IMG/VR virus record: IMGVR_UViG_3300020046_005360
Direction: 5' to 3' (one strand)
From: a virus
Taxonomy: Duplodnaviria; Caudoviricetes
DNA length: 64,000 nt
The notes below the pieces were generated by a model. The model saw only the letters and a list, made by a program, of their open reading frames with translations. It searched no databases and had not been told where the DNA came from. Shown here piece by piece: positions 11,797 through 55,284 of the stretch (position 1 is the stretch's first letter; each line of letters begins with the position of its first letter). The translations under genes were made by a program, and so were the position numbers.

Positions 11797-12678
11797 TTAT
11801 TTTATAGACTCTTTAATTACTATTTTAGTGAAATTAAAAGATTTTCCTACAGGGGAAGCATTATTTACATTTATTGTATTAGGAATTATATAACCTTTAA
11901 CTGTAAGAGTCATTTCTGATTTAGAAGCTCTATCTCCCCCACTTTCTACTGATATAGGTGTTGGGTATGAATCTATACTTGCTCTAAATTGGAATCTTTC
12001 TTTATCTCCCCAATATGAATCAGAAGCAAATTCTATAGCTTCTATAAGTTTATTCATATGTTCAACATAATCTGTGTATATAATAAGTTTATATCTTATT
12101 GTGATATAATCTGGTATAATTCCTACTTTATATTCAACACTTTTCTTTTGGTTTTGCAGAACAGAAAAGTTATCATATGAGTTTCTTTGACTATAACCCT
12201 GTTTAAAATATTGAACGTTGTTTACTTTATTACCATCTAATTTATTTCCCAACGTTCTATCTTTATCAAAACTTTCACGTTTAAGTATTATTAGGGGTAT
12301 TTGAGCTTTGCCGTTTTTATCGCGATAAAAGCCGTCTTTTTGTATTGACTTCCATCTTTCAGGGGAACCATATATAACAGGTACTCCGCGCGTACTCCCG
12401 TTGATTTCAACAGTGGGTCTTATATAATTTTCTATATAATATATTATAGCAGAATCATGATCTTCAAGAGATATTTGAATATTATTTGTAGTATCTCCTT
12501 TCAAAGATATTTCATTCGCCCTAACAAAATCAGGTTGACCAGGATTAGTATACTTTAATTCAGGATTTGAATTATCGTAAGGCTGTAGTTCTTGTTCAGG
12601 AATTTGATACGGTTCAGGAAGAGCTTTCAAGAACTTATCTCTATTTATGGGAGTTGGTTTATCTCTATTTTTAGCCAT
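11797..12678 (-). CDS. Tail terminator / sheath stabiliser (gp15-like)
   Basis: VPVIYGSPERW motif; position after neck genes. Confidence 0.55.
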   Translation of the reverse strand: MAKNRDKPTPINRDKFLKALPEPYQIPEQELQPYDNSNPELKYTNPGQPDFVRANEISLKGDTTNNIQISLEDHDSAIIYYIENYIRPTVEINGSTRGVPVIYGSPERWKSIQKDGFYRDKNGKAQIPLIILKRESFDKDRTLGNKLDGNKVNNVQYFKQGYSQRNSYDNFSVLQNQKKSVEYKVGIIPDYITIRYKLIIYTDYVEHMNKLIEAIEFASDSYWGDKERFQFRASIDSYPTPISVESGGDRASKSEMTLTVKGYIIPNTINVNNASPVGKSFNFTKIVIKESIK

Positions 12679-13636
12679 TATTAATTATTTTAATAATATC
12701 ATCGGAATATAATTCTTCATATTCGTATTTATCTCCGGGACTATATATCTCTATTCTTAATTCCCCTTCTTGTGGATTTTTATCTATTTCTATTACTTCT
12801 CCCGTTTTTTCTCTTAATCCAGTTCCCTCATCAAAAATAAATTTATATTTTTTACCTATTTCTAAATCATTTATATTAACTAAATTTGGATTATTTACTT
12901 TAATTTCGCTAAAAGTAGAGTTTTGGTCTGCTACAGTATATTCTTGTAGTGTTAAATCATATCCTGCACGTAAAGCTTCAGATTGAGCTTGTTTAAAATT
13001 TTGTGGCAGCTCTCCTCCAAAGAAATCTAAGATATGCATATAATCATTAAATTTTTTTAATTGAGGTTGGTTGACTTTGATTTCATTAAGTATACCAACT
13101 AAATTTTCTTTTAATATTCTTAAATCTTCTTTTACTACAGTACGTGAAAATTTATTTCTTATTGATTTTAAATCTTTTACTAATTGGATTAGTTTAGGAC
13201 GTGAATGGAAATCTTTAAGTTGGACTTTTTCAAATTTACTTATTAAGTCAGTTAAATCTTTATGGATAGTAGAATCGTCTACTTCTTTTTTAACACTCCA
13301 TGTTACTGATTGTGTTTCAGGGTCTATATCTGTTACAGTTGTTCTTCTACCACCTGTTTCAGATGATTGACCAATGTTAAAATCGGAAACGTCTTCATTC
13401 AAATCATCATATTCTTTCCCTGTTCTTTGTTTAAATAATTCACGGGCGTATTCACTTACTTCAGATTCATTTTCTACCTCTTCATCCTCAAAATCGTTAC
13501 CTCCTGAAAATTCACCAACTTCATCTAAAGCTTGTCCCCAGCATTCATCAAATATTTTTTCATAATTTAATGGGTTGTTTACTTTTATTTCTGTAATTAT
13601 ACCAGCTAGTTGCTGCAGTCTTTTTATTTCGTTCAT
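12671..13636 (-). CDS. EIKVNxP-module polyprotein (putative internal head protein)
   Basis: [16 protein letters not shown] leader, 3 tag copies. Confidence 0.65.
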   Translation of the reverse strand: MNEIKRLQQLAGIITEIKVNNPLNYEKIFDECWGQALDEVGEFSGGNDFEDEEVENESEVSEYARELFKQRTGKEYDDLNEDVSDFNIGQSSETGGRRTTVTDIDPETQSVTWSVKKEVDDSTIHKDLTDLISKFEKVQLKDFHSRPKLIQLVKDLKSIRNKFSRTVVKEDLRILKENLVGILNEIKVNQPQLKKFNDYMHILDFFGGELPQNFKQAQSEALRAGYDLTLQEYTVADQNSTFSEIKVNNPNLVNINDLEIGKKYKFIFDEGTGLREKTGEVIEIDKNPQEGELRIEIYSPGDKYEYEELYSDDIIKIINNG

Positions 13637-14133
13637 TATATTCTTGTTTCTGTAATTCCTAATTTCTCTGAGCGTGAATAATGCGCAGAAACGATTATAC
13701 TAAGCGATACTCCTGAGTCTTCGACACCGTCACCGACCTTATAAGAATAATCGGGATCTCGACCTGATACTAATTGATTTTCGTCCACATTATCTATTTC
13801 ATAATACTCCTCATTCCACAACATTACATCTCCTATCATAGGAACGACATTAGCTTGTTTTAAATGGTATTTTAAAAAACGTACTGTAAGGGGTCTTGTT
13901 CTATCTTGTCCTTCTTCTCCATCTGTCGTAGCGTAATTACCTCTTTCAATAAGACAGTTTATTAAAACAGGACCAGTAAAAGATTTTTTAAGACTTTCAC
14001 CATATATATTTGTTTCTGATTCTTCTATATTACATAAATAATATCCTACTTTTTGTTCAATAATTTGTCCTAAAAGTTCTTTATTTATGTTATTTATGAA
14101 ATCAGAGTCTCGACTGCGTTCCCAATATGCCAT
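13636..14133 (-). CDS. Neck / head closure protein (gp14-like)
   Basis: NIYGES...[13 protein letters not shown]; next to the gp13-like gene. Confidence 0.65.
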
Positions 14134-14136
14134 AAT

Positions 14137-14427
14137 CTATGTATTTTTAGAATATTCTTCTAATTCGTTATATATAGTTTTTAAAATTTGAGGGTCTAAA
14201 TCAAATATTACCCCCTTATAGCCATCCTCATAGTCTTCCCAATTAAATCCTAGTGGGATATTATCATCAAGTATATCTCTTGCTGCTACATCATAATGAT
14301 CTTCCCCTTCATTAACATATAATTTATTATATAAATCCCATACTTTTTGAGGAGTAATATTTGGATTATTTACTTTAATTTCAGTAATGATACCAGCTAG
14401 TTGTTGTAATCGTTTTATTTCGTTCAT
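14137..14427 (-). CDS. Single-module EIKVNNP protein
   Basis: [22 protein letters not shown] start. Confidence 0.65.
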   Translation of the reverse strand: MNEIKRLQQLAGIITEIKVNNPNITPQKVWDLYNKLYVNEGEDHYDVAARDILDDNIPLGFNWEDYEDGYKGVIFDLDPQILKTIYNELEEYSKNT

Positions 14428-14429
14428 AT

Positions 14430-15612: not shown

Positions 15613-16269
15613 TTATATTATATTTCTTTTTATTTCTCTGTTATACTTACTACATAAAGGTTGAAGGTTAGTATAATGACTTAATTTAATTAATTCTTCC
15701 TCTGTTTTAGCACTACTTATTGGGATTATATGATCTAGATCCCAAGTTTTATTGAATTCTAAAATTCCATCTTTTGGATTACCATAATTTTCTAATTTCA
15801 TCCAAGGTTCGAATTTAGATTCTATATAATCTTTAAAAATAACCCATTCACAACCTAATATTTGATAGGTTCTAGTTTTTTTCGAATATCCCATATTACG
15901 AAAAGACTCATTAATTCTACAAGCAATTCTATTTTTTAATTTAAATAGGGGATCATTATTAGCTCTATTTCTAAAATATTCTCTATCATACTCTTTCTTT
16001 TGGGGTTTTTGGAAAATCCTAATCTCTTTAAGTTCTTCAGAATGTTCTTTATTATATTGATTAGAATATTCTTTTATAGGAACCTCATTAATTTTATTAT
16101 ATTCTTTTCTATTTTCCCATATTTTTTCTTTATTATCTTCTTTATATTGTTTAGCACAAACTTTACATCTACCCGATAATCTATCTTTTTTAGATTTATC
16201 AGAATAAAAATTACTTAATTCTTTATCCTGTTTACAAATAACACATTGTTTCATATAAATAAATATCAT
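15613..16269 (-). CDS. HNH homing endonuclease
   Basis: CxxC...CxxC N-terminus; WDLDHIIP...HYTNLQPL. Confidence 0.8.
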   Translation of the reverse strand: MIFIYMKQCVICKQDKELSNFYSDKSKKDRLSGRCKVCAKQYKEDNKEKIWENRKEYNKINEVPIKEYSNQYNKEHSEELKEIRIFQKPQKKEYDREYFRNRANNDPLFKLKNRIACRINESFRNMGYSKKTRTYQILGCEWVIFKDYIESKFEPWMKLENYGNPKDGILEFNKTWDLDHIIPISSAKTEEELIKLSHYTNLQPLCSKYNREIKRNII

Positions 16270-16409
16270 TAATCGAATCTTGATGCACAGAATTTAGTTA
16301 CTTTTACAGAATCTGCTATAAATTGTGGATCGTTGTCGTAAAATCCGAAAGGGGTTGAGGAACCGGAAGTAAAAACCGGATTACCCATATATATTACACT
16401 ATTGGCCAT
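16269..16409 (-). pseudogene. Truncated duplicate of the neck gene 5' end (46 aa)
   Basis: MANSVIYMGNPVFTSGSSTPFGFYDNDPQFIADSVKVTKFCASRFD vs MANSLIWTGNPIFTSGSSTPFGFYDNDPQFVSDAVKVANFCASRLG. Confidence 0.9.
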
Positions 16410-16421
16410 GTTTTATTTTCG

Positions 16422-16430
16422 TATAAATAT
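16422..16430 (-). promoter_or_regulatory. Representative late-promoter-like motif ATATTTATA
   Basis: Recurs in about 18 intergenic gaps just upstream of start codons. Confidence 0.6.
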
Positions 16431-16468
16431 TGAAAAGTAAAGGCACCTAGCGGTGCCTTATTTAATCT

Positions 16469-17119: not shown

Positions 17120-17179
17120 GTAATTATTTTTAGTTAGACATTTGTCTTATATAAATATTAACGTACAAAAAGAATATTG

Positions 17180-17795: not shown

Positions 17796-19436
17796 TTAGA
17801 TTGAGTTCAAGTCTGCGACCAGAATTTTACCATAGAACTCAGGACGAACCATTTTCTTAGCGTATCTTGTCATAATACCTTTCCTAGGTGTAAATGTTTC
17901 AGGATCGTATACTAATGGAGTAGTCATTACTGGAATATATGGTGCATATACAGCTCCAGTTTCCAAGAATTGATTACCTTTGAATCCCATTAATATCGTA
18001 TTCTCAGTCATATATGGGTTTTTGTAAACTTTATAACGAGAATTAATAGCTCCTACTTTTTGTACACCGAATGCGTAAGATGATTTTTCAACACTACCAT
18101 CTGTATCTGCTGCAAATCCGGGGATTGATTCAAGTACAGTAGCAACTGTTGGAGATACTACCATGAAGTTAGCACCACCTCTTAAAGTTTTCTGATGGAT
18201 TGCATTAGAAACTTTTTGCATTTTAATACCTAGTGTTTGGAACCAAGACATTTTAGTGTAATATAAACCTGCGTTATTTACATTTGTAAATCCACTTCCA
18301 GTATAATCTTGACCTACTTTAGCTGACCAATATTCTGTTGTTGGAGCGTTTTGGATTAACATATCCAAGATTTCCATATCAATCTCTAGTGAGATGTATT
18401 CTGACATTAAACCAGTAACCTCAGCCTCAGCATCGATTGATTGGAATGCATTTAAATCTTGAGAGAACTCTGGAGTCCAGCTTGCTTTTAATTTTTTAGT
18501 TTTAGCAGCAATTGTATCAGATTTCATTTGGATATTGAATTCTGGGATAACGATATCTGTTGCAGAAGCAGCATTAGGAATTGAGAATGTACCTGCTGTA
18601 CTATCTTCATAATCACCTCTGTTATTATCTTTAGTTTGTTTATTATATAAAACTGAAGCTGCTGTTAAAGTAACTGAACCAGTATAGTAGAAATCTACTG
18701 TACCTGCAGCTGTTAATCTTGTATAATTTTGTAATAAGTTTACTGGATTAACACCTGAACCTGATACTACAAACGCTCTTACTCCGTTTACATCAAATGA
18801 TGTTAATGAAGAAGTTGCTACTGAAACTTTATAGATTTGACCTGCAGCAATAGAAGCTGATACAGCTGAATCATAATTTACATCTGCTAATGTAAGTGAA
18901 GATGATGCTACAGTTCCTGAAAATACTCCAGAAGCTGATGCTATTGCGAATTGGTTAGTTGAGTAACCAAACTTACCTGCACCATATAAACCACCATCTG
19001 CGTCATTTGAGAAGATATTATTTTGGCTGTTTTTACCATATAATGAATCTCCTGCGTTAAATGGGGATTTTGTGTTACCATATTGGAAATCTAAGAAGAA
19101 GATTAAACCTGCTGGTAAAGACATTGGTTGAACAGAAACGAATTCTTTAGCGGCGATTTGACCAAATACTTTACGTACTAATGGTAATGCAACGGCTGCG
19201 TATTGTTCTCCATTACCTGCTGTGAATGTAGCTCCACCTTGGTTTGTTGTATTGCTCTCTCTTACTAATTGCTTAGCTTGATTTTCTAGCAACTGAGCCA
19301 TGTGTGCTTTTTCTGTGGTATTTTCGATACCTTCTAATAGACCTGATTTGGCCCATTTACCTGCTAATTTCATAGCTCCAGTTAATTGAGCTTGATATGG
19401 ATCTGCAGATTCTAATAATTGTTGTACTACTGACAT
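17796..19436 (-). CDS. Major capsid protein (gp23-like)
   Basis: LLENQ, VSVQPMSLPAGLIF, KLKASWTPE..QDL, YAPYIP, GIMTRY. Confidence 0.96.
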   Translation of the reverse strand: MSVVQQLLESADPYQAQLTGAMKLAGKWAKSGLLEGIENTTEKAHMAQLLENQAKQLVRESNTTNQGGATFTAGNGEQYAAVALPLVRKVFGQIAAKEFVSVQPMSLPAGLIFFLDFQYGNTKSPFNAGDSLYGKNSQNNIFSNDADGGLYGAGKFGYSTNQFAIASASGVFSGTVASSSLTLADVNYDSAVSASIAAGQIYKVSVATSSLTSFDVNGVRAFVVSGSGVNPVNLLQNYTRLTAAGTVDFYYTGSVTLTAASVLYNKQTKDNNRGDYEDSTAGTFSIPNAASATDIVIPEFNIQMKSDTIAAKTKKLKASWTPEFSQDLNAFQSIDAEAEVTGLMSEYISLEIDMEILDMLIQNAPTTEYWSAKVGQDYTGSGFTNVNNAGLYYTKMSWFQTLGIKMQKVSNAIHQKTLRGGANFMVVSPTVATVLESIPGFAADTDGSVEKSSYAFGVQKVGAINSRYKVYKNPYMTENTILMGFKGNQFLETGAVYAPYIPVMTTPLVYDPETFTPRKGIMTRYAKKMVRPEFYGKILVADLNSI

Positions 19437-19462: not shown

Positions 19463-20566
19463 TTATTTTACGATACCAGCTAATTGTTGCATTCTAAGTA
19501 CAAAATCACTTTCTTGTGTTGTTACTTGTTCGTTTAATGCTCTTGGAGAAGAACCCGCTGGTCTTGAAGCGCTTCCTCTGTTTTCTCTTAATTGAGTAGT
19601 TGGCGTTGTGATTAGAGATTCTTTTAATGTTAAGAAAATATTCTTAGTTTCATTAATATTTCTTCCTCTGTCTAATGCATTAACTACTTTTACTTTTTGA
19701 GATTCTGTTAAATTTTTAGCTTTAAATATTTTATTTACATATAAAAGTTTAGAATTTAACAAATTCATTTCATTAAGTGATTTTCTTTGTTCTGCTATCA
19801 CTTTTTTAGCCTCTTGGAGTTCAGTTGATTCTGCTCTTAATGCGGATCCGGCTGCTGATCCTCCTGCGGCTAATTCTGCTTTAATTTTAGCTAATACTTT
19901 AGGTCCGGCTTTTTTGATCATTGCAATGATATTATCTAATCCAGCGGCTGCTGTATTTGCAGGATCAATTGATCCACCACCCATTTCAGATAAAACTTCA
20001 TCTAAATTAATATCTTCTTCTTCACTTTCTTCTGACTCAGGTTCAAATTCTACTTCACCTTCATCTTCAAATTCTCCTTCAGGCTCTTCTTCACTTAATT
20101 CTAGTTGAACTTGACGAATAATATCTTTAAGTTCATCCACTGTAATTTCACCTACAACATCATCACCTTCAGCGTCTTCTTCTAATTCTAAACCTTCTGC
20201 TCTTAGTGCCGTACCTGCTGCTGCTCCTCCTGCTTCTAATTCTTTTTTAATTTTAGCTAAGATACCTGGAGTTTTTGCTGCTGCTCCTTTAATCATTGAG
20301 ATTAAATTATCCAATCCAGCTGCTGCTGCACCAGAAGGTTCTTGCATCGCTTCATCAACGGCTCCTTCTTGTCCTTCTAATTCGTTAAGTAATTCATCTA
20401 AAGATACTTCTGATTCTTCTTCCATTTCATTTAATTGGCTTGAAAGCATACTTTTAATTTGTGGGGCGAACGATTCAGCCATAGCTAATTTAGCATTACT
20501 AAATGCGGTTTCTCTAATTTCTTTTGCTTCTGCTACTGCGTCTGCAAAAAGTTTTGGTTTTGACAT
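19463..20566 (-). CDS. Prohead scaffold/core protein (gp22-like)
   Basis: Acidic, many L-x-E sites, between protease and capsid; ends RMQQLAGIVK. Confidence 0.8.
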   Translation of the reverse strand: MSKPKLFADAVAEAKEIRETAFSNAKLAMAESFAPQIKSMLSSQLNEMEEESEVSLDELLNELEGQEGAVDEAMQEPSGAAAAGLDNLISMIKGAAAKTPGILAKIKKELEAGGAAAGTALRAEGLELEEDAEGDDVVGEITVDELKDIIRQVQLELSEEEPEGEFEDEGEVEFEPESEESEEEDINLDEVLSEMGGGSIDPANTAAAGLDNIIAMIKKAGPKVLAKIKAELAAGGSAAGSALRAESTELQEAKKVIAEQRKSLNEMNLLNSKLLYVNKIFKAKNLTESQKVKVVNALDRGRNINETKNIFLTLKESLITTPTTQLRENRGSASRPAGSSPRALNEQVTTQESDFVLRMQQLAGIVK

Positions 20567-20761: not shown

Positions 20762-21382
20762 TTATCTTAAGCAGCACATTCCTGTCTGAGAGCAAACAAT
20801 TTCTGATATTATTTCGTTTAATTTATCGTATTTAGAATTAGTTTTTGGTATATAATTTTCATTAAGACCTAAAGGTTTAACGAATGCTCCTTGTGTTGAT
20901 GGTTCTGATACTATATCCCAACAAACTAAAGAAAGGTCGTCTTGAACTTCTACAGTACCTTCACCTAAACTTTGCACTGAACCCATAGCTCTAGATGATA
21001 TACCTATTTGCACTCCACCTTTTACTAATGCTTTTACTATATTACCTGAAGGGGTGTCTAATATTAAAAGCTTAGCTTTTACATCATCTCCATCCCACCA
21101 AACCTCTGTTATTCTGTGGCAAACGTTTTTTAAATTGACAACTTGACTATCAGGGTGATCTAATTCTCCTGTTGCTCTATTTTCAACAACGGGACCATTT
21201 TTATAGTTTTCAATTTCTCTTTCAAGTATATTTTTGGGGTAAATCCTTCCATTTTGATTTTTAGCATCAGCACGTTGAATAATACCTTCAAGAATTAAAT
21301 CACCACTATTATGTTTAATACTCTCATTAATAGATTTAGGGTCGAGTTTAAGTGGAAAGTGTTCTATTAATAATTGCTTCAT
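20762..21382 (-). CDS. Prohead core protease (gp21-like)
   Basis: NQNGRIYP, GELDHP, GISSRAMGS, DIVSEPS. Confidence 0.93.
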   Translation of the reverse strand: MKQLLIEHFPLKLDPKSINESIKHNSGDLILEGIIQRADAKNQNGRIYPKNILEREIENYKNGPVVENRATGELDHPDSQVVNLKNVCHRITEVWWDGDDVKAKLLILDTPSGNIVKALVKGGVQIGISSRAMGSVQSLGEGTVEVQDDLSLVCWDIVSEPSTQGAFVKPLGLNENYIPKTNSKYDKLNEIISEIVCSQTGMCCLR

Positions 21383-22620
21383 TATACTCTACTTTTAGTT
21401 AATTGAACGCCTTTAGTTCTAGCATTATTTATTATACCAGCAGCTTCATTATCATCTTTAGCATATTGAACATTACCCGCTTTATCTTTTACCACAACAG
21501 CTTCTTCCATACCATATTTACCACTTGTAATTTTATTTAATTCAGTAGCAATTTCATCTAAGACATCATCATCTTCTAAATCATGTTCAGTTAATCCCCA
21601 ATCTTCAACTATTTGTCCTACAATTTTTCTTTGTTGAGGAGTTAATTCATCTAAATCTAATTCAGGAGCTCTTTCACAATCAGAACATTCTTCTCCTTCT
21701 AAATCCTCTTTTAAACTATTCATTAGTTTATACATTTCAGGAACATCATCTTCCTCCCAAATTTCCATATCTATCATATAATCTACCAAATCATCCCAAC
21801 TATTTATAGATAAGACATCTTCATCTTCATTTTCTTGCGAAATTAAATTTTTAAAATTTTGAAACTTTAAAGGATTATTTACTTTTATTTCTTTTAATTT
21901 TTTATTTTGACTTATAAGTTGTTTTCCCCCTGCTTGTTGATTATTATTAAATGTAAATAATATATCTCCTTCATAACCATCTTCTATATTTTCTATTTTT
22001 ACATCATAAGGTTTTCCTAATCGTACTCCAAGTATTCTATCCCCAATTTGAACTTTAGAAGGATCAAAATCTGGTATATATTTATTTAATTTCCATATCT
22101 TGTTGGGGGTATTTACTTTTATTTCTTTTAATTTTTTTAATTGATTTGGAGCAGTAAAGTCTTTTTTTAATTCTTCTGGTCTAAGATTTTCTTTCTCTGT
22201 TTTTTTCTCAGCATCAGAATAACATTTTTTAGTGTAGTAGTAAGGGTCAGAAGTAAGATTTTTTAATACTTTACGTTGTGTTGAAACCATTTCTTCTTCT
22301 GTAGGCATGTTTTGACCAACAGCAAGTTGAGTTAATTCCAATTCATAGTTGATTCCTTTTCCATATTCGTATGGTGAAACTTGGTCAATCGTAAAAGATT
22401 CAATTTCTGGTAGTTTAGGATTTTTATCTGCTTTATATTTTGGGACTAAATCCTTATTTTCGGTAATAATAGATTTTGATTTTAGAATTTGAATGGTGTC
22501 TTTCAACGAGTTAAATTTAGTAATCATAGGAAGTCTAGGATCACGACGTACTTCGTAAAGGAATTTTTCTTCGCTTATAATACCCTGTACTAATTGATTA
22601 TATAGTGTTTGTGCTGTCAT
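21382..22620 (-). CDS. Head-associated protein with two EIKVNxP modules
   Basis: KGINYE...NLTSDPYYY domain then LKEIKVNTP and LKEIKVNNP. Confidence 0.65.
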   Translation of the reverse strand: MTAQTLYNQLVQGIISEEKFLYEVRRDPRLPMITKFNSLKDTIQILKSKSIITENKDLVPKYKADKNPKLPEIESFTIDQVSPYEYGKGINYELELTQLAVGQNMPTEEEMVSTQRKVLKNLTSDPYYYTKKCYSDAEKKTEKENLRPEELKKDFTAPNQLKKLKEIKVNTPNKIWKLNKYIPDFDPSKVQIGDRILGVRLGKPYDVKIENIEDGYEGDILFTFNNNQQAGGKQLISQNKKLKEIKVNNPLKFQNFKNLISQENEDEDVLSINSWDDLVDYMIDMEIWEEDDVPEMYKLMNSLKEDLEGEECSDCERAPELDLDELTPQQRKIVGQIVEDWGLTEHDLEDDDVLDEIATELNKITSGKYGMEEAVVVKDKAGNVQYAKDDNEAAGIINNARTKGVQLTKSRV

Positions 22621-23615
22621 TTATTTTTGGTTTATTATTTTATTCAAATCTGAAATTAAATCTTTTTTATCTTGATTATCTAATTCTTCCCACCATTGTC
22701 CTTGGTCTGCAAAAGTAGGGTACCCATACATTTCGAGAGTATTATCAGTTTCTTTTTCACTTACTTTATCCCCATCATCATTAATTTACGTAAATCCTCA
22801 AGTTCTAAAGTGACTATATTAGGGTTATTTATTTTTATCTCGTTTATTTTAGAAATATTTGAAAATGCTTCTTTTAGTTTATTCTGAATTTTATATAATG
22901 AATCTTTAGTACGTTTTAGATATTCTATTTCCTGATCATTTTCCTGTAATTCACCTTTAATACGAGTAGTAAATTCAATAAGACGATTTACTTCATCTAA
23001 TTTTAATTGTATCTCTTTTATCGCGCGATGAAGGATTTCTCTTGGTTTAGGTTTAGAAGTAGATTTTTTAAATTGGGTGTAACGAGATTCTGATAGTGTA
23101 TTTTTTATTTGTAATGATTTGTTATTTTGTTGTAACCAATTTAATATCTTATTAACATCATTGGATTCGAATTCTGGTTCTGTTGTATAATCGTCTCCCG
23201 GTTTATTGAAATCGTAAATCTCAAATTCTCCATCAAATTGGTTTAAATCTTTATATCTTCTTATGACAATATTATCTTCTAAAAATATTTCACCTTGATC
23301 TTTTAGATTTAAAATAGCGTCTTTTAATTCTTGATTATTTGGATTATTAATTTTGATTTCTTCCAAATGTTCTCCTTTCCACAAATCTTTACTATTTAAT
23401 CTATCTTTAGGGTCAACTATTTTAAACTTCATAGTTTTAGTATACATGTTTGGTTTAGGAGATGATTCGAATCCTGTTGGTGAGTTTTTATCTTTTTTGG
23501 TTGGTTTACGGAATGCTTTTTTAGTTAAATACCCTCCTGCGTCACCTGATGTAGATGTCTCTAGTAATTCACGGCAGTAGGCCTTGATTGAGGATTTTAA
23601 AATTTTATTATCCAC
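22621..23615 (-). CDS. Head-associated protein with two EIKINNP modules; last module frameshifted near 22785
   Basis: ORF 22761..23615 plus a -1 frame continuing to TAA at 22621, abutting the next ATG. Confidence 0.6.
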
Positions 23616-37193: not shown

Positions 37194-37466
37194 TTAATAT
37201 TTAGGATATAAACCTGTTTTAATAAAAGTTAAATTATGATCAAAATCATTTTGATCAAGATAACCAATATTAATTAAATAATTCACTGCATCTTCTGGAG
37301 TATTCTGGTCCTTAAAGTCTAATATTTCATGGGGTTCATACTCCTGGTCTTGCATACTTAATATATTATCTTCTTTCCATTCATTAAAATATGGATATAT
37401 AGGATTGTTTACTTTTATTTCAGTTATTATACCAGCTAGTTGTTGTAATCTTTTTATTTCGTTCAT
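37194..37466 (-). CDS. Single-module EIKVNNP protein
   Basis: [22 protein letters not shown] start. Confidence 0.65.
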   Translation of the reverse strand: MNEIKRLQQLAGIITEIKVNNPIYPYFNEWKEDNILSMQDQEYEPHEILDFKDQNTPEDAVNYLINIGYLDQNDFDHNLTFIKTGLYPKY

Positions 37467-41194: not shown

Positions 41195-41488
41195 TTATTT
41201 TGATGGAGTTATTTTTGTTAATTCATCTTCCCAAAATTCTATTATATTACCACCATCTTCTTCATCCCAATCATCTTCAAAACCATTTGGATCCATTTTA
41301 AAAAATGCAGACTTATTATTTTCAACAGGATTATAACCATCAAATTCAACCCCAGTTTCTGATATATTTTCTCCTTCCAAATCATATTTTTCTCCTAATC
41401 TTAAATTAGAGAATTTTACGTTTGGATTATTTACTTTAATTTCAGTTAATATGTCAGCTAGTTGTTGTAATCTTTGTATTTCGTTCAT
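41195..41488 (-). CDS. Single-module EIKVNNP protein
   Basis: MNEIQRLQQLADILTEIKVNNP start. Confidence 0.65.
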   Translation of the reverse strand: MNEIQRLQQLADILTEIKVNNPNVKFSNLRLGEKYDLEGENISETGVEFDGYNPVENNKSAFFKMDPNGFEDDWDEEDGGNIIEFWEDELTKITPSK

Positions 41489-43475: not shown

Positions 43476-44813
43476 TTATTTGTTAATTAAAAGTATTTCA
43501 GGTCCCATTTCTTTAATTTGAATTTGTGGATATTTTTCTTTACAAATTTCAGCACATTTTAAAAATATTCTACGTCTATATTCACTTATAGGGTGGAGTT
43601 TTATTAGTTGTGGTGTTTTATTTATCAAATATTTTGGGATTATTTCATCTCTAATGATTTTACATATAGTATTAGACCTCATTTCATCTTTTCCACCTAC
43701 CAACCCATCCTCAGGATTAATACTTCCAATCATTTTATCATAATCGTAAACTTCTATCCATTCTCCTTTTTTATTTTTTAAAACAAAATAAGATTCTATA
43801 TATTTAGATGAAGGATCAAAACTAACTTCTAATTTATTTCCATACTTATCCTCGAAACCCCAATGATTACTAATGTCTTCAGAATAATTATAAGCCATAT
43901 CAGGATCGGCAAGTTCCATAAATATTTCAGTGTCCGTATGAGATATAGAATCAGACTCATTTAAACCGATACATTCTTTTTGTATTCTAGCTTCAATTAA
44001 ATTTTTCTTTCTAAAAATAGAAGAATCTTTATTTTCTCTTATTATTCTAAACCTAATTGGTTTCTTTACTTGTACTTCTTTATCTTCTTGTAATTCAGCT
44101 TCCTCTTCTTCAGGAGCTTCTTCATTAGGTACTTCTGAAGTATCAACACCATCTAAATCTAAATTTTCGTCCCCAGGTTCCGCTGTCATATCTTGGACAA
44201 ATTGGTCCTTCATGTCGGTCTCGTTTTCAATCTCTTCACCAGGACCTGCACTACCAGGAGGTAGTCCTTGTAGTAATAGGTTTGATATAGCTTTTATAGC
44301 ATATTCTTCATCTTTTAAGTTCATTAAATGATAAACTTTTCCAGACACTTTTGCCATATAAGCTTTTGGGTTATAAATTAAGAGAAAATTACGTCCGTTA
44401 TGTAAAAGTATTTTAAATGTAGTTGGTTTGGGGCTTACAACAAATATACTTGTTATATAATCTTTATACACAGGAGACATTAAGTCTGTAAGTGTAGCTT
44501 CGAGTGAAGGATATTTTTGAAGAATATATTCGGTTGGATCTTTTTCAAATTCAAGTGTTTCTTGTCTTTGATTCTCAATAGCGTTATCTATCTCTTCTCT
44601 AAGTATGCTTTTTAAATCCATTTCTTGAATAATTTTACTACCAATTTTTAATATACCTTTATAAGATTTAGGTTGTTTAGTTGAACCATCATTTTCTTTG
44701 AACCAACCCCAACCATCATTTTGGTGATGATTTTGCCAATAAAGTTTATCTCCATTTTTGAAGGTAACTAAATCTCCGAAATTTAATTTTGGTGGAGTAT
44801 ATTTTTTACCCAT
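43476..44813 (-). CDS. Multidomain hypothetical (putative internal head protein)
   Basis: ILREE, LQE, IRE, LIE, LNE sites dividing segments; PKPTTFKILL domain. Confidence 0.6.
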   Translation of the reverse strand: MGKKYTPPKLNFGDLVTFKNGDKLYWQNHHQNDGWGWFKENDGSTKQPKSYKGILKIGSKIIQEMDLKSILREEIDNAIENQRQETLEFEKDPTEYILQKYPSLEATLTDLMSPVYKDYITSIFVVSPKPTTFKILLHNGRNFLLIYNPKAYMAKVSGKVYHLMNLKDEEYAIKAISNLLLQGLPPGSAGPGEEIENETDMKDQFVQDMTAEPGDENLDLDGVDTSEVPNEEAPEEEEAELQEDKEVQVKKPIRFRIIRENKDSSIFRKKNLIEARIQKECIGLNESDSISHTDTEIFMELADPDMAYNYSEDISNHWGFEDKYGNKLEVSFDPSSKYIESYFVLKNKKGEWIEVYDYDKMIGSINPEDGLVGGKDEMRSNTICKIIRDEIIPKYLINKTPQLIKLHPISEYRRRIFLKCAEICKEKYPQIQIKEMGPEILLINK

Positions 44814-45595
44814 TATCTTAGATCTAATTTATCTTTAGGAATTTTGATAAATTTTAATTCATCATCCCCAGTGATTTCATAAGGAATATTATGTTTATCT
44901 AACAAAGAAGTTAATTTATCCATTTGTTCTTGTTCTACTTCCCTATCTTCTTCCTCTTCAAATAAAAATTCCATTTTTATGAATCCAGGTTCATCAACAT
45001 AAGGTTCAGTACCCCACCAAGTTTCCCCATCTTTGGATAATGAAACTACTTTTAGTTCTCCATCATCATCATCTTCATCATAATCAAATTGAATTTTTCC
45101 AGGTGAGTTTACTTTTATTTCACTAAAAGTAGAATTTTGATCTGCTACAGTATATTCTTGTAATGTTAAATCATACCCAGAACGCAATGCTTCTGCTTGG
45201 GCTTGTTTGTAACTTTGAGGTAATTCTCCTCCAAAAAAATCTAATATATGCATGTAATCATTAAACTTTTTTAATTGGGGTTGATTTACTCTTATTTCAC
45301 TCTGAATTCCAGCTAATTCCTGCATACGATCTACTTCACCTCCATATACAGGTTTTTCTCCACGAATAATTCGTGCTACGTTTTCAGGATCAGCTCTATC
45401 TAATACTTTATTTCCACGAGCAACTTGATCTTCATCTTCAGTTACTTCAATATCACCATTAGCTATTCTTAATAATATTTTATCCAATGTATCTTTAGTT
45501 AAACCTTTTGTTGTACCTCCTGGAGCGTAGCGTGAATAACCTTTTTCTTCCAATAGTACTTCTTTAATTATATTTCTTAAATGCAATTTTTTCAT
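44813..45595 (-). CDS. EIKVNxP-module protein
   Basis: RMQELAGIQSEIRVNQP; shares a 66-aa cassette with 12671..13636. Confidence 0.65.
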   Translation of the reverse strand: MKKLHLRNIIKEVLLEEKGYSRYAPGGTTKGLTKDTLDKILLRIANGDIEVTEDEDQVARGNKVLDRADPENVARIIRGEKPVYGGEVDRMQELAGIQSEIRVNQPQLKKFNDYMHILDFFGGELPQSYKQAQAEALRSGYDLTLQEYTVADQNSTFSEIKVNSPGKIQFDYDEDDDDGELKVVSLSKDGETWWGTEPYVDEPGFIKMEFLFEEEEDREVEQEQMDKLTSLLDKHNIPYEITGDDELKFIKIPKDKLDLR

Positions 45596-50183: not shown

Positions 50184-50762
50184 TTATTTATTTTTTTCTT
50201 TCGCTTCCTTGATTTGTCTCTTCATTTCTTTAATATAATCATGGTCAATTCCTCCTCCTTGCCATGTTTCACGTACGCCGTCTTCTGTTATAAAATCTTC
50301 ATTTTTAGAATTAGCGTATTCGTCAAGAGCCTTTTCAAACTCAGTTAAATGTGAAGTAAAGTTTTTAGACATAAGATCTTTTTGATATTCTTCAAATTTA
50401 CCTTCAATTTTAAGATTAGTTTCCATCTCAATTACACAATCAAAACATTTTCCATGTATATTATACATTTTTTTATTTAGATCATATATTTTAAAATGAT
50501 TTTTACAACAAGGACAAACTAATGGATATTGACCATATTTTTTAAGTGAATCGTATTTTGTTACGGTTTGTTTGATCCCATTCTTTATTACCCATTTCTT
50601 ACCATCTTCTTCCCAAATATCACCTTCTATATGTTCTTCTTGTTGTTTAGAATACCCTGTTTGAGTTTTAGTAGTATCACCATAACGTTTAGCTGTTATA
50701 TTACGAATACGATTTAAATCGGACTCGTTCCATTCTTTTTTTAATAATGTATCTTTGCTCAT
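50184..50762 (-). CDS. Hypothetical protein with CxxC motifs
   Basis: GDIWEEDGKKW, CPCC...CFDC. Confidence 0.6.
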   Translation of the reverse strand: MSKDTLLKKEWNESDLNRIRNITAKRYGDTTKTQTGYSKQQEEHIEGDIWEEDGKKWVIKNGIKQTVTKYDSLKKYGQYPLVCPCCKNHFKIYDLNKKMYNIHGKCFDCVIEMETNLKIEGKFEEYQKDLMSKNFTSHLTEFEKALDEYANSKNEDFITEDGVRETWQGGGIDHDYIKEMKRQIKEAKEKNK

Positions 50763-50902
50763 TTTTTGTTTGGGTCTTGATAAAGATTTATATAAGTTGG
50801 AATATTTCTTCTTTCTTTTGAAGATATATAATTAGCAGCATCTATTAATTTTTTTAATAATTTAACTTCTCTACATTTTATATTTGGATTATTTACTTTC
50901 AT
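50759..50902 (-). CDS. 47-aa MKVNNP mini-protein
   Basis: MKVNNPNIKCREVK...; ATGA overlaps with both neighbours. Confidence 0.6.
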   Translation of the reverse strand: MKVNNPNIKCREVKLLKKLIDAANYISSKERRNIPTYINLYQDPNKK

Positions 50903-51447
50903 AAACCTAGTTTTTGTAATTCTTGTATAATTTCTTGTGTATTACCTTTATAAAGTAAACCTATCCCATTTCGAGCTTTCCAAGCCTGTATTGTGTCTTC
51001 ACGATCGTCTATTAAAATTTGATTTGGACCAGATAGATCTGATTTACGTTCTGCAGATCTGAATTCAATATCATAATCACCTAAATTATCTTGAACCCAA
51101 TGGGTTTTACCTTCAACCGAAACATTATTTCGTGATGGTGCAGTAAGAATAATAGGATTATATTGTTTAATATAATTCCACAATTCTTGTCCTTCAGGCA
51201 TCCAACTCATTCCTCTATAAAATCGCATACCGACCTCTTCATCAATAAGTGACCAGAATTTTTGTAATCCAATCTTAGGACCAAATTCCCTCTCGGCCCT
51301 AGCTCTATATTCAGATGGAGATAATCCACTAAAATGTTCGAAGCGGGATTCAAAGTCACATAAACAACCATCCAAATCTTGGTAAATTTGATATGAATCT
51401 TGCATATCTTCTAATAATAATTCATTTAATGTCATAACTTTATTCAA
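50899..51447 (-). CDS. HAD-family 5'(3')-nucleotidase
   Basis: DLDGCLCDF, ILTAP, K, ILIDDR. Confidence 0.85.
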   Translation of the reverse strand: MNKVMTLNELLLEDMQDSYQIYQDLDGCLCDFESRFEHFSGLSPSEYRARAEREFGPKIGLQKFWSLIDEEVGMRFYRGMSWMPEGQELWNYIKQYNPIILTAPSRNNVSVEGKTHWVQDNLGDYDIEFRSAERKSDLSGPNQILIDDREDTIQAWKARNGIGLLYKGNTQEIIQELQKLGL

Positions 51448-54280
51448 ATATTTCGGGGTTTTCTCTACTAAATTTACGCATCATAGTAGCTGCAGTTGAA
51501 TTACATTCGTTCTCCCATTCATCTCCATCTTGACCAGATTCAGGTTTTAGTCTACCTTCTATATCTTGTTTTAAATGAACCATTTCATGAAACATACTTC
51601 TTGTAATATCTGCTAAATTACGATTATAAGTAACAACTCTTATACTTTTATCACCGGGAGCATACCCACCAAATGAATGATGTTCTTTTGTATATTCAGG
51701 ATTATTTATCAATATAACATTTGGTTTTGGAATATCCAAATATTTCATAGCATACTGTACTGCTTTATTTAATATAGGAGCATGTTCTTTTTGAAATACT
51801 TCTTTTAATAATTTAGATTCATTAATAGTTTCAGGAACATCATTGGGATTAATTACACTTTTTGTTTTTAGAAAATTATTTACTTCATAATCTCCCCACC
51901 AATTATTATATATTTTATTTGGATATCTTTCTATATTATGACTTATAATTGCAGGAAACGTAGGTGCTCTAAAATCATCTTTTATTTCATTTTCACTAAG
52001 CCATTTATATCCATCTCTATTTAAAATAGGGAGTATTTTTAGCCAAGCTTCTTTATCTTTAACGTAATAATGCCAATTTTTATCAGTTGGAAAATATAAA
52101 CCCGGTTTATTCACTTTAATTTCATCAACTTCGTGATAAGGTTCTATAGTTGGTAATATATCTGAGATATATTGTTCCACACTTATTTCTTTATCTTTGT
52201 AAAGTGTTTTTACTTGTGGATATTTTGTTTGTAACTCTTGGATAAGTTTAAGAACACGAGTATTATCTCCCAACTTATCTAAAAATACATCAATTTCTTT
52301 AATATAATTTTTTGCGTTTGGAATTTCCTTTTTAGTACCCAAATTAATTCTTTCTTCAGATTCGTCTTGGGAAATTTTAGGATGAACATTATTCGTATCC
52401 ATTTCATCTGAATAGTAATAAAATGGAACAAATTTATAATTGTTTGATAATTTATTTCCGTCTAGTTTAATACGGACTAAAGAACCTCCTATTTTAGGGT
52501 CATTTTTCCATAAATTTTTATTACGAGTAGTAGAAAAGTAATTTAAATATTCGATCCCCTTATCTTTAAAATCCGATTCTTTTTTTCTAAATGATTTAAA
52601 ATCAGGACCTAAGTCATCAACTGCCGTTACGGAAGAATAAAATTTATTATCATCTAAAATACCTCTTAATCCATTAAGATTAGAAAAATGATACACATCA
52701 CCTACGCTTTTAGCTTCATCTACACGTCTTGGTTCTCGTTTCTCCATCCCCATCATAATACCAACTAGTTTTGGAAGAGTAGAAGTATCTTTAATTCTAT
52801 TATAGAAATCTGGAATATTATCACCTGACATATCATATCCATGTTTTTCTAATATATCACTTAATTCGGATTGGATTTTTACAGAATGAATTAAATCTTG
52901 GAAATCTTGGTAAGGTATTTTACCAGGCATATTTACTTTAATTTCTTCAATTGAAGCTAGTTTATCATAATATTTTGGATCTTCAAAGAGGTGATCCATA
53001 GCTATTTCTTCTGCTACGTCTTTAGAAGTGGTATGTTCTAATTCTACTTTAATACCTTTTTGGAGTTGTTTTCTTAGACTAGATATATTAGCTTTATGTT
53101 TATCAGCTATGTCTTGTAAAGTTAGTCCAGAAGATAAACCACCAGGTATTTTTTCTTCATTTAATGAGTCTTTAACCACATTAAGCAATTCAGGGGCTTT
53201 ATTAATCCATGATGATGAATCTTCGATATTAATATGAGGAGTAGATAAATATGGAGGTGGATTAGTTATTGCCGATTTTGATACAACTTTATAATTATCA
53301 TCCCAATCCTCAACTAATCTAGACCATTTAGGAACATTCATATTAGCAAAAGATGCTATTATTTTTTTATCTCTAACATCAATTAAAAAATAATCTGGAG
53401 GTCTTTGTGTTGATTCTTGGGTTTTTAAAAATTCATTATATGAATGACTTTCTCCGTAAGCTTTTTTATAATTAAAGGGTTGATTTACTTTTATTTCATT
53501 TAAATTTAATAAAGATTCATATTCTTTATAAATTTTATTTAATTCCTGTCCTGGTAGTGCTTCTAAAAATTCTTTAGTATTACGAAAAGTTATTACATCC
53601 CCATATTTATCTTTAATATCTTCTATTTTATTAATATAATACAGTTGATCATTACTTTGAAGGGTTCTATATTTTTCTCTTATTTGTTTTATCAAATTTA
53701 TAACATCAATAACAGATTTAAATCCCGGAGTATTTACTTTTATTTCATGAAGTTGAAAATTCATTAAGAAATCGTCTACTTTTATTCCTTCAGGAATTAA
53801 AGATTTAATTGCTAATCTATTTCTAATTCGTATAGCTTCACGCAATGAAGTAGATGATATGTCATCAAAATTACCAGCGTCTATAATATCAACATTTGAA
53901 TATTTTTCTCTATTTTCGTTTATAGAATTATATCTATCTTTTTCTCCTTTTCCATATACAACAATATAATTATTTGTTTTATCCTTAACTATATTATAAA
54001 TTTCTGTTATAGGAGAAGATGAAGTAGATATTTTTACTTTAACATTTTCGGGCAATAAAGGAATATATTGTTTCCAAACTTTAAGTGATACTTCAGGAGT
54101 ATATCCTTCACGTATATTATTTGAAATAATAATATGAAGTTCATCTACGTGTTGAGCAGCTCTCTTAGCAACTTCAACGTGACCACGATGTGGGGGGGAG
54201 AACGAACCAGGATATAAGCTAATTATTTTAGCAGATTCGTGTATTATTCTTTCAGCAATTTTTTGTCCTAATCCTTCCAT
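51440..54280 (-). CDS. Polyvalent protein: nucleotidyltransferase + EIK modules + DUF5661-like + ART-like + HExxH domain
   Basis: YPGSFSPPHRGH/ISSTSLR; GIKVELEHT..IAMDHL; VYHFS..FSTTR..ESEE; FHEMVH; 4 tags. Confidence 0.75.
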   Translation of the reverse strand: MEGLGQKIAERIIHESAKIISLYPGSFSPPHRGHVEVAKRAAQHVDELHIIISNNIREGYTPEVSLKVWKQYIPLLPENVKVKISTSSSPITEIYNIVKDKTNNYIVVYGKGEKDRYNSINENREKYSNVDIIDAGNFDDISSTSLREAIRIRNRLAIKSLIPEGIKVDDFLMNFQLHEIKVNTPGFKSVIDVINLIKQIREKYRTLQSNDQLYYINKIEDIKDKYGDVITFRNTKEFLEALPGQELNKIYKEYESLLNLNEIKVNQPFNYKKAYGESHSYNEFLKTQESTQRPPDYFLIDVRDKKIIASFANMNVPKWSRLVEDWDDNYKVVSKSAITNPPPYLSTPHINIEDSSSWINKAPELLNVVKDSLNEEKIPGGLSSGLTLQDIADKHKANISSLRKQLQKGIKVELEHTTSKDVAEEIAMDHLFEDPKYYDKLASIEEIKVNMPGKIPYQDFQDLIHSVKIQSELSDILEKHGYDMSGDNIPDFYNRIKDTSTLPKLVGIMMGMEKREPRRVDEAKSVGDVYHFSNLNGLRGILDDNKFYSSVTAVDDLGPDFKSFRKKESDFKDKGIEYLNYFSTTRNKNLWKNDPKIGGSLVRIKLDGNKLSNNYKFVPFYYYSDEMDTNNVHPKISQDESEERINLGTKKEIPNAKNYIKEIDVFLDKLGDNTRVLKLIQELQTKYPQVKTLYKDKEISVEQYISDILPTIEPYHEVDEIKVNKPGLYFPTDKNWHYYVKDKEAWLKILPILNRDGYKWLSENEIKDDFRAPTFPAIISHNIERYPNKIYNNWWGDYEVNNFLKTKSVINPNDVPETINESKLLKEVFQKEHAPILNKAVQYAMKYLDIPKPNVILINNPEYTKEHHSFGGYAPGDKSIRVVTYNRNLADITRSMFHEMVHLKQDIEGRLKPESGQDGDEWENECNSTAATMMRKFSRENPEIFE

Positions 54281-55011
54281 TCTGTTATTTCTTGTAATAT
54301 TTTTTCTTTGGGATAACATAAGGGTGAATAACCTATTTTATCTTCAATATTGTTTATTTTACTATCAATTTCTCCTAAAAGTAATTTGAATTTATTTTCT
54401 TTTTCTAAAATTTGTTCTACTGTATAACTAGTTGTATCTGTTCTAAAAGAAGACTCAACTTGAATATTTTGTAATTCATATTCTACTGTTGTATTACCTG
54501 ATTCAAATATTTCTACAAGATGCTCTTCTTCCTCAGTATACTCCGTCTCATAAATATAAATATTATCCTTTCCAAACATATTTATATACTCGTCTATTTG
54601 AGAATATACTTGTAACCATCGTTCTAGAAGAACTTGTTTGGGTATTCTTCGTTCACGAGAAAAATTGCGTTTAAACGCGATAATTGGATTACAATATACT
54701 ATTATGACTTTATATTGGTATTGCTTATAATCGATGATTTTGCGCAGAGTCTTCGTATTTGAACCAACGGTTTGAAGTATAAAATTCCACCCTTCATCCA
54801 TTTGATTTGGGAGGACAGTTTTATACAAGAAATTTGATGCTTTGAGTGGATTATTATAAAATTCACTATCCTCATTTTCAACCCAAATATCAGGATCAAG
54901 TCTCCCCCACATTTCTGGTTCTTGAAAATCATCCCAACGACATAATTCTTCTTCAAATTGGGTTTTACCTGATGCAGGTGAACCCATTATTAAGATACCT
55001 TTATTGCTCAT
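54268..55011 (-). CDS. P-loop kinase (zeta toxin/AAA_33-like)
   Basis: ILIMGSPASGKT; AFKRNFSRERRIP lid. Confidence 0.7.
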   Translation of the reverse strand: MSNKGILIMGSPASGKTQFEEELCRWDDFQEPEMWGRLDPDIWVENEDSEFYNNPLKASNFLYKTVLPNQMDEGWNFILQTVGSNTKTLRKIIDYKQYQYKVIIVYCNPIIAFKRNFSRERRIPKQVLLERWLQVYSQIDEYINMFGKDNIYIYETEYTEEEEHLVEIFESGNTTVEYELQNIQVESSFRTDTTSYTVEQILEKENKFKLLLGEIDSKINNIEDKIGYSPLCYPKEKILQEITEWKD

Positions 55012-55147
55012 GTTTCTTTTGGATTATTGTTTGTAGTTTTTGGCTATCAGAATTTAAAAATTGTGGGAGTATTTCAATCCATTTTCTCATTAATTCTCTC
55101 TTTTTATATTCTTCTTTAGCAGTAATGTTTGGATTATTTACTTTCAT
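55001..55147 (-). CDS. 48-aa MKVNNP mini-protein
   Basis: MKVNNPNITAKEEYKK...; TAATG coupling to upstream ORF. Confidence 0.6.
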   Translation of the reverse strand: MKVNNPNITAKEEYKKRELMRKWIEILPQFLNSDSQKLQTIIQKKHEQ

Positions 55148-55284
55148 TACTTATCATCTTTAAAAAGTGATTGAAATTTATCTGGTACCATAGCGCTTTT
55201 TCTTCCAGGAGAAGTTATATATTTTCTAAATTCTTCATATAACTTAGCTTTTGCTAATACATCGTTTGGGTTATTTATTTTCAT
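55147..55284 (-). CDS. 45-aa MKINNP mini-protein
   Basis: MKINNPNDVLAKAK...; CGTATATTTA motif upstream. Confidence 0.6.
   Translation of the reverse strand: MKINNPNDVLAKAKLYEEFRKYITSPGRKSAMVPDKFQSLFKDDK

Follow-up and report, generated by a model that had tools for sequence, protein, structure and literature searches.

A 64,000-nucleotide stretch of viral DNA (IMG/VR record IMGVR_UViG_3300020046_005360; Duplodnaviria, Caudoviricetes), which we call the window, encodes a short peptide of the form E-I-K-(V/I)-N-x-P that recurs 23 times in 11 open reading frames (ORFs). We propose that these peptides (tags) mark protease-released, capsid-loaded cargo cassettes, a reading to which we assign a probability of about 0.6. 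We observed a strong statistical excess of the motif, a prohead protease encoded in the window, a likeness between the leader of small tagged proteins and the end of the scaffold protein, a restriction of the tag to one clade, the swapping of cassettes between proteins, and defined sites at which cassettes are inserted.

The tag and its conservation

A six-frame scan of the window for E-I-[KR]-[VI]-[NK]-x-P returned 22 strict copies and one variant with a final Glu in place of Pro. All 23 are on the minus strand and confined to 11 ORFs, named here by their lower coordinate: 12671 (three copies), 14137 (one), 21382, 22761 and 34812 (two each), 37194 (one), 37513 (three), 39643 (two), 41195 (one), 44813 (two) and 51440 (four). 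EIKVN is the top 5-mer of the minus-strand translation. Composition predicts 0.015 copies, and 2000 within-protein shuffles gave a mean of 0.0145 and a maximum of one; the abundance of the tag is real and beyond chance. The scan bears out the copy number and the distribution over ORFs that had been put forward in a first-pass annotation of this DNA, made from the sequence alone.

That annotation had also described a hydrophobic residue two before the Glu, and indeed position P3 is L, I, V or F in 22 of the 23 window tags. When the tags of the window and of its relatives were pooled (94 distinct tags), P1 was Glu in every case and P3 was L, I, V, M or F in 87, against a background of 0.277 (p = 4e-40). 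Information content in the pooled set is high from P3 to P6' and at background level at P4 and P7', with P1'-P6' more strongly conserved than P3. The codons for E, I, K, N and P follow the genome-wide synonymous usage. Only the Val codon (codon 4) deviates, being GTA in 15 of 17 cases (50% genome-wide) and never GTT. Since codon use at the tags is otherwise ordinary, conservation is at the level of the peptide and not of the DNA, as the first reading had it. The modules behind the tags are net acidic in 19 of 23 cases, in keeping with the earlier description; their lengths, 25-284 aa, exceed the range of roughly 50-150 aa first given.

A candidate protease and its cut-site rule

T4-like and giant-phage prohead proteases cleave after Glu at x-X-E motifs, and relatives of the enzyme with such short sites are found in T4, phiKZ and SPN3US (A-X-E, with weak P4 and P1' preferences) (PMC5694885, PMC10052503). 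In T4 records we found L-T-E|A in gp23 and many [LIVM]-x-E tripeptides in gp22, gp67 and gp68. The upstream half of the tag fits the P3-P1 site expected of a T4-type protease. The proposed cutter is a prohead (head maturation) protease of 206 aa and of the T4 gp21/Peptidase S77 type, encoded at 20762..21382 on the minus strand. This ORF, called a gp21 homologue on first inspection, was confirmed as a member of PHROG 207 (E = 2e-57), and its orthologue in a relative (L006) carries PF03420 Peptidase_S77. Homologues were found in 69 relatives; in the 37 that were aligned, the DHP and SSR motifs are invariant.

The protease gene lies among the head genes. The order portal (24483-26396), core genes, protease, scaffold (19463..20566, minus strand) and gp23-like major capsid protein (MCP; 17796..19436, minus strand) matches T4 genes 20-67-68-21-22-23. 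Two tagged genes, 21382 and 22761, lie between portal and protease, that is, in the place of the T4 prohead core genes. The N-terminal propeptide of the MCP carries LLE|S, LLE|G, LLE|N and VRE|S at the position homologous to the T4 maturation site. Prediction of a complex between the protease and a leader-tag peptide scored 0.00, which bears neither way. Proteases of the tag-bearing clade differ from those of tag-less relatives at 13 alignment columns (12 substitutions and one N-terminal gap); examples are S80Q, which places Q80 beside the DHP motif, E118A and E151S, which remove two acidic residues, and T160E, which adds E160. This comparison is confounded by phylogeny and was not used as evidence.

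A leader that copies the scaffold C-terminus

Four tagged ORFs (12671, 14137, 37194 and 41195) start with MNEI(K/Q)RLQQLA(G/D)I..E, followed directly by IKVNNP, and a fifth copy of this leader, Met included, lies inside 39643. The acidic, [LIVM]-x-E-rich scaffold protein ends in RMQQLAGIVK, the peptide echoed by the leader (R-M/L-Q-Q-L-A-G-I). Of about 55 relatives, with MCP identities as low as 60%, nearly all have R[MW]QxLAGI at the scaffold C-terminus. Small proteins of tag-less relatives start with MKQQxNE(I/V)KR(M/L)Q(Q/E)LAG..E, a leader that ends in [LIV]-x-E and continues into unrelated residues. Because a leader ending in [LIV]-x-E is also present in these tag-less relatives, the leader and its site appear to be ancestral and family-wide, and probably behave like the T4 capsid targeting sequence (CTS), using a mimic of the scaffold tail. 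Some leaders have LAGI-N-E in place of the longer LAGI-x-x-E and so retain I-x-E.

The combination of leader and tag extends beyond the window. A word search returned 30 small metagenomic proteins that share this leader and tag on unrelated bodies, and a leader-plus-tag profile searched against 1.84 billion representatives matched 240 clusters at 50% identity, again with unrelated bodies. Polyproteins are among these matches, and the proteins examined hold as many as 10 strict tags apiece. The leader motif is present in 148 of the 157 leader-type proteins that the profile and word searches together supplied for examination. Metagenomic leaders include degenerate tags that retain E|hydrophobic-x-hydrophobic-x-x-P. 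Two metagenomic super-polyproteins, P0115 (1378 aa) and P0078 (747 aa), string together from 6 to more than 10 tagged modules in a row, among them DUF5661, a module of the 12671 type, a nucleotidyltransferase-like region and a zincin-like domain.

Cassettes are swapped and inserted at existing sites

Orthologues carry different modules behind the same upstream junction (...KVIINE|, ...KLASIEE|, ...NFQLHE| and ...DLWK..E|). A 59-residue module common to 12671 and 44813, with about 87% DNA identity, is bounded exactly from tag to tag. The number of tags also varies between orthologues: 22761 has 284 aa and two tags, whereas its L006 orthologue has 626 aa and six, and 21382, with 412 aa and two tags, corresponds to a tag-less L006 protein of 345 aa.

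The family of 37513 has more than 500 members, and its minimal form of about 343 aa consists of three conserved blocks. In the tag-bearing clade, cassettes are found exactly at the two junctions between blocks and at the C-terminus. Where the junctions are empty they hold plain L-D-E|S and I-Q-E|Q, and 9 of 9 returns from cassette to conserved sequence in the family come after [LI]-x-E; in the window protein, both returns to conserved blocks do so (FINE|E and RLNE|Q). Protein length rises with the number of tags, from a median of 424 aa at zero tags to 1086 aa in the single eight-tag protein. A tblastn search with 37513 against cultured phages gave remote huge-phage matches only. The presence of [LI]-x-E both at empty junctions and at the returns defines the cassette as 'IKVNxP - module - [LI]-x-E', and insertion of such a cassette at an existing site would regenerate two sites. 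On these comparisons of sequence, the modules are interchangeable.

Distribution among relatives and among genes

Among 80 related head loci in IMG/VR, tags occur only at MCP identities of at least 77%, and even there they are absent from some genes; a pattern scan of IMG/VR returned only a handful of multi-tag contigs. The tag was not found in Flavobacterium phage immuto, whose NMNAT polyprotein aligns to its window homologue, 51440, in the enzyme domain only. The first-pass annotation had called the tag widespread, which holds within this genome and its close relatives and fails for head loci below 77% MCP identity.

Within the window, no cleavable tag was found in the terminase large subunit (TerL), portal, MCP, gp13-like protein, tail fibre, primase, exonuclease or RNA ligase; TerL holds only a Glu-less IKVNNP inside its intein. 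A relative of 132 kb (G001) has 24 tags, all on a single strand and all within 7.3-42.7 kb. Its other 90 kb are tag-free and encode, as judged from PHROG annotation of the ten largest ORFs there, baseplate wedge, GroEL, nicotinamide phosphoribosyltransferase (Nampt), glycosyltransferases and DNA ligase; Pfam searches for sheath and PolB in G001 found nothing. An equal frequency of the motif in replication and tail proteins, which by the first-pass annotation would speak against capsid cargo, was not seen: there was none in the genes examined, and 90 kb of G001 lack it.

A model for cassette loading and release

Packaging, cleavage and delivery of the modules are the parts of our reading that we infer, and they take the following form. 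The tag would be a two-part junction, in which [L/I/V/M/F]-x-E supplies P3-P1 for the S77 prohead protease and I-K-(V/I)-N-x-P provides the constant start of a mobile cargo cassette. Such cassettes would be used in two settings. In one, the cassette follows a cleavable 16-residue N-terminal leader, which presumably enters the prohead through the scaffold's own docking site. In the other, it would occupy an [L/I]-x-E site that was there before, between conserved blocks of a recipient protein, the recipients being head-core proteins, the 37513-family protein and the polyprotein with NMNAT and zincin-like domains. Once the prohead is assembled, cleavage by the protease at every Glu would release the modules from one another; these would stay inside the head and would probably reach the host along with the DNA. 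The constant P' hexapeptide, with its structure-breaking Pro, may make the site independent of the module that follows, and it is this independence that, in our proposal, would allow modules to be exchanged in frame.

The first-pass annotation had read the tags as junctions of capsid cargo, and the sequence evidence supports this in part. The [L/I]-x-E half fits the T4 rule, the protease is present, the small tagged proteins have a CTS-like leader, 21382 and 22761 are in the place of core genes, the tail, baseplate, replication, portal and MCP genes examined are tag-free, and the modules are interchangeable. Capsid targeting, however, would be better explained by the leader that copies the scaffold C-terminus than by the tag itself.

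The tag-bearing proteins

All 11 ORFs are on the minus strand. Searches of PHROG, Pfam and NCBIfam with the tag-bearing proteins yielded almost nothing besides a nucleotidyltransferase and DUF5661. Four of the proteins are built on a leader. ORF 12671 (12671..13636; 321 aa) has a leader and three tags, whose Glu codons start at 13591, 13084 and 12907; the leader is followed by modules of 169 and 59 aa and by a small beta module of 77 aa. Its AlphaFold2 (AF2) model, with a pLDDT of 52, is unusable for linker analysis. ORF 14137 (14137..14427; 96 aa) consists of a 16-aa leader, a tag at 14362-14382 and an acidic module of 80 aa; it adjoins the gp13-like gene, and L006 has a leader-tag protein at the same place. 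ORFs 37194 (37194..37466; 90 aa; tag 37401-37421) and 41195 (41195..41488; 97 aa; tag 41423-41443) both have the arrangement leader, tag, module. The AF2 model of 41195 (pLDDT 74) has a helical leader, a tag modelled at low confidence as unstructured coil and a module folded as a five-stranded small beta barrel. A Foldseek comparison of this module with the PDB gave only weak matches, to SH3-, Sm- and Tudor-type small beta barrels (E = 0.07 or worse).

The two conserved head-core proteins are 21382 (21382..22620; 412 aa; tags 22105-22125 and 21871-21891), directly upstream of the protease, and 22761 (22761..23615; 284 aa; tags 23340-23360 and 22821-22841). The two tags of 21382 flank an inserted 78-aa beta module, which the L006 orthologue lacks. 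ORF 34812 (34812..37190; 792 aa) ends in two tagged modules (tags 35244-35264 and 35028-35048). ORF 37513 (37513..39381; 622 aa), the member of the large conserved phage family described above, has tags at 39079-39099, 38599-38619 and 37747-37767. For both 34812 and 37513, ESM Atlas look-ups gave no informative family. ORF 39643 (39643..41193; 516 aa) carries the variant tag with final Glu at 40492-40512 and, further on, the complete internal leader with its Met, followed by a tag at 39886-39906, as if an upstream gene and a leader-tag gene had fused. ORF 44813 (44813..45595; 260 aa; tags 45278-45298 and 45101-45121) contains an internal peptide, RMQELAGIQSE, that resembles the scaffold tail.

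ORF 51440 (51440..54319) encodes a polyprotein of 959 aa with tags at 53726-53746, 53477-53497, 52925-52945 and 52103-52123. It comprises an HxGH nucleotidyltransferase domain (NMNAT-like; CTP_transf_like), DUF5661, modules that matched no family and a C-terminal HEMVH zincin-like motif. The end of Pfam DUF5661 coincides exactly with tag 3. Residues 734-959 have, beyond the HEMVH motif, no sequence matches in Pfam, NCBIfam or the PDB. The NMNAT-like N-terminal domain of 51440-54319 is one of several NAD-related features, together with a Sir2-like gene and a PHROG 'NAD synthetase' match (42795-43472 and 58109-58549 of the window) and, in G001, Nampt (13986-15521 of locus L188). They suggest NAD+ salvage by the phage, with one enzyme possibly delivered pre-made.

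Alternative explanations

Several observations weigh against reading the tags as released cargo junctions. Nine distinct basic ORFs (41-73 aa, net charge +1 to +7) start directly with MK(V/I)NNP and have nothing 5' to cut. Such micro-ORFs include a tandem pair on the minus strand upstream of the polyprotein operon, which is found in both the window and G001; in the window its first member, of 45 aa (55147..55284), starts with MKINNPN and the second, of 48 aa (55001..55147), starts with MKVNNPN and overlaps the first by a TAATG stop-start. A further one, of 47 aa (50759..50902, minus strand), starts with MKVNNPN and overlaps the upstream nucleotidase gene by ATGA; stop-start overlaps with neighbouring genes are found in several of the nine. 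In the TerL intein, IKVNNP (28104..28121, minus strand) is an outlier that follows Tyr and not Glu. ORFs 34812, 37513 and 51440 have no recognisable leader although they are large tag carriers, and the promoter-like motif of the 51440 operon differs from the ATATTTATA motif of the scaffold and other genes. The likely maturation sites of the MCP are plain [LV]-x-E|S/N without IKVNxP. The hexapeptide is therefore probably unneeded for cutting and wants an explanation of its own, and the conservation of P1'-P6' is not accounted for by the needs of the protease alone. To our knowledge, no characterised prohead protease reads as far on the P' side as P6'. The micro-ORFs, the Tyr-preceded copy in the intein and the degenerate metagenomic tags suggest an independent function for the hexapeptide.

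One such function would be that of a signal at the new N-terminus. After the cut at E|I, the exposed I-K-V-N-x-P would be read by a partner (the capsid interior, the portal, DNA-associated proteins or a host factor) and would serve retention, ordered ejection or stability, all of which are compatible with cleavage. The stronger conservation of P1'-P6' than of P3 points this way, although the MCP sites manage without the hexapeptide. The nine micro-ORFs, which encode the MK(V/I)NNP end directly and whose tandem pair is shared by the window and G001, and the degenerate tags, which keep E|hydrophobic-x-hydrophobic-x-x-P, point the same way. However, we found no candidate for a reader protein, the 41195 model predicts no structure for the hexapeptide, sister clades have the same head proteins without the tag, and the micro-ORFs could be cassettes that became genes through a change of ATA to ATG. 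We regard this signal as the chief rival to our reading, and also as an extension of it, but as rather unlikely. In its most specific form, the hexapeptide would be a cleavage-activated address that docks cargo and DNA-associated micro-proteins to one receptor in the head or portal and sets retention or the order of ejection, which we likewise consider possible and rather doubtful.

If the chains instead stayed intact, the nonapeptide would be a short linear motif or a standard linker between domains, with a shared binding partner that it might contact through, for instance, beta-strand addition. The tags do sit at domain boundaries, and cutting would split the 37513-family protein at its inserted modules. 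Such a linker leaves unexplained the invariant Glu and hydrophobic P3 of the protease rule, the [LI]-x-E at every cassette end, the leader ends that obey the same rule in tag-less relatives and the complete leader with Met inside 39643, and we consider it unlikely. Cleavage by an enzyme other than the S77 protease, either the zincin-like HExxH domain at the C-terminus of 51440 or a host enzyme, is suggested by the HEMVH motif there, by the same domain in the multi-tag proteins P0115 and P0078, and by the MPTase autoprocessing that Iyer et al. predicted for polyvalent proteins (PMC5512222). The zincin-like motif is shared, however, by the tag-less immuto homologue, so presence of the domain does not go with presence of the tag. 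Pfam searches matched no peptidase family, and the P3-P1 pattern is of the S77 type, which makes a different protease very unlikely. Least probable of all is that the roughly 21 nt of the tag act at the level of DNA or translation, as a recombination site, homing-endonuclease target, promoter, internal ATH start or 2A-like skipping element. In its favour, the duplicated cassette is delimited by tags in the DNA too, homing endonuclease genes abound in the genome, the Val codon is biased to GTA, and the micro-ORFs have ATG for ATH. Against this, the synonymous positions of E, I, K, N and P are ordinary, every copy is in frame, in one orientation and within an ORF, the conserved Glu and P3 have no role in initiation, and the 2A motif NPGP is absent.

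Two groups of specific mechanisms were considered and rejected. Skipping of the 2A type requires D(V/I)ExNPGP with an obligatory NPG|P; the tag has N-x-P with x variable and no G-P. Internal initiation at ATH, Asn-Pro autocleavage and a Lys-Asn isopeptide leave the invariant Glu and the hydrophobic P3 unexplained, and the middle residue of N-x-P is variable.

Gene content of the window

The window has about 28% G+C, carries nearly all of its genes on the minus strand and belongs to a contig of 175,283 bp. From its protein matches, it represents a distant, uncultured T4-like phage related to Immutovirus. Among cultured phages its MCP is closest to that of Flavobacterium phage immuto (53% identity), from which hosts of the Flavobacteriia type may be guessed; a Microcystis phage, huge uncultured phages and Rhodothermus phage RM378 come next, in that order. 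A megablast search with 24 kb found no match in the phage collection. Public sequencing runs contain just 0.2-0.35 of sampled window words, that is, the DNA of relatives; these runs are wastewater, aquatic, freshwater and air metagenomes and give no habitat for the window genome itself. Genes were named by PHROG and Pfam searches and include, besides those described above, a gp13-like neck protein, an intein-split TerL, a tail-fibre-like protein, PhoH, primase, exonuclease, RNA ligase, a Sir2-like protein and several homing endonucleases.

The load of HNH, endonuclease VII and homing-endonuclease-like genes is unusually high (15613-16269, 17180-17767, 29201-30097, 31699-32319, 48205-48696 and 57125-57859), and several are wedged between conserved head genes. 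TerL (26421-29201; 926 aa) contains an intein of about 390 aa, roughly at 27267-28445, with Cys at the N-terminal splice junction, HN|C at the C-terminal junction, LAGLIDADG-type endonuclease motifs and weak Pfam matches to Intein_splicing and PT-HINT. Immediately 5' of the endonuclease-VII/HNH-like gene at 15613-16269, a diverged copy of the start of the gp13-like gene (16270-16468) has about 75% DNA identity to the first 46 codons of that gene (14430-15611). In L006, gp13 directly follows PhoH, with no endonuclease gene between them. The partial duplicate and the endonuclease gene together look like the footprint of a homing-endonuclease insertion.

Two kinds of motif recur upstream of genes. 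The T4-late-promoter-like ATATTTATA is found 5' of the scaffold, PhoH and many other genes. The other is a GC-rich hairpin followed by CGTATA(T/C)TTACAA, found 5' of the micro-ORF/polyprotein operon and of one further unit (58057-58108); at 34739-34811 a hairpin is followed by a looser CGTATATTAAATAA. The remaining upstream-motif regions are 20567-20761, 17120-17179, 1387-1450 and 55285-55398.

Relation to known systems and significance

The first-pass annotation knew of no described system with this tag. That holds for the junction sequence and the cassette logic and not for the principle, which has close precedents in the T4 CTS and internal proteins and in polyvalent proteins; what is new here is the fixed P' hexapeptide junction and an explicit cassette grammar. 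In T4, the CTS on the internal proteins IPII and IPIII is removed by the prohead protease gp21, and IPI and Alt are also trimmed N-terminally (PMC9958956, PMC5694885). As in T4, a short N-terminal peptide on unrelated small proteins ends at a Glu site of an S77 protease, the genes lie among head genes with core genes between portal and protease, and the cargo is presumed to travel to the host with the DNA. However, the window leader is unrelated in sequence to the CTS peptide given in the literature, of which it would be an analogue and not a homologue, and it copies the C-terminal peptide of the scaffold, whereas the C-terminus of gp22 has no likeness to a leader. A fixed P' hexapeptide, up to four sites per polyprotein (up to 10 in relatives) and swappable cassettes also set the window system apart.

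Scaffolds of HK97-fold viruses have a C-terminal peptide that binds the coat protein, for example the helix-turn-helix of the P22 scaffolding protein. The conserved R[MW]QxLAGI would similarly be a likely docking element. Here, in contrast, the peptide has moved to the N-terminus of cargo, ahead of a cleavage site, and its binding to the capsid protein is presumed.

Head, inner-body and ejection proteins of the giant phages phiKZ, 201phi2-1 and SPN3US are cut at (A/S/G)-x-E (PMC10052503, PMC5694885). There too a gp21-related protease processes many head proteins after Glu, with several cuts per protein and propeptides for which a targeting role has been proposed; but recognition is by P3-P1 with weak P4 and P1' preferences, and the propeptides are removed and are not strings of interchangeable modules. 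Iyer et al. (2017; PMC5512222) predict for the polyvalent proteins of phages and conjugative elements that they are delivered along with DNA and divided into units by processing. They are multidomain proteins that combine enzymatic domains, uncharacterised domains and a zincin-like motif, a description that 51440 appears to fit. For these, processing is credited to the MPTase and a uniform junction peptide is not described, whereas the window junctions obey the prohead protease rule and also serve small single-module genes.

What is currently known of prohead proteases would not lead one to expect the strong P'-side conservation or the MK(V/I)NNP micro-proteins, and for giant phages we know of no shared P' tag. 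If the hexapeptide is an address at the new N-terminus, these viruses would have a cleavage-activated N-terminal tag system and a portable standard for capsid-loading cassettes. The leader yields a concrete hypothesis, namely that scaffold-docking sites are reused for the loading of cargo, and anyone wishing to load foreign proteins into phage capsids would find a natural design rule in the cassette grammar. If our reading of the tags as released cargo junctions is true, these phages have turned T4 capsid targeting into a plug-and-play system, in which IKVNxP...[L/I]-x-E modules drop in frame into existing sites or behind a leader. This would explain the rapid diversification of injected arsenals, which likely have counter-defence functions, as exemplified by the NAD-salvage enzyme domain.

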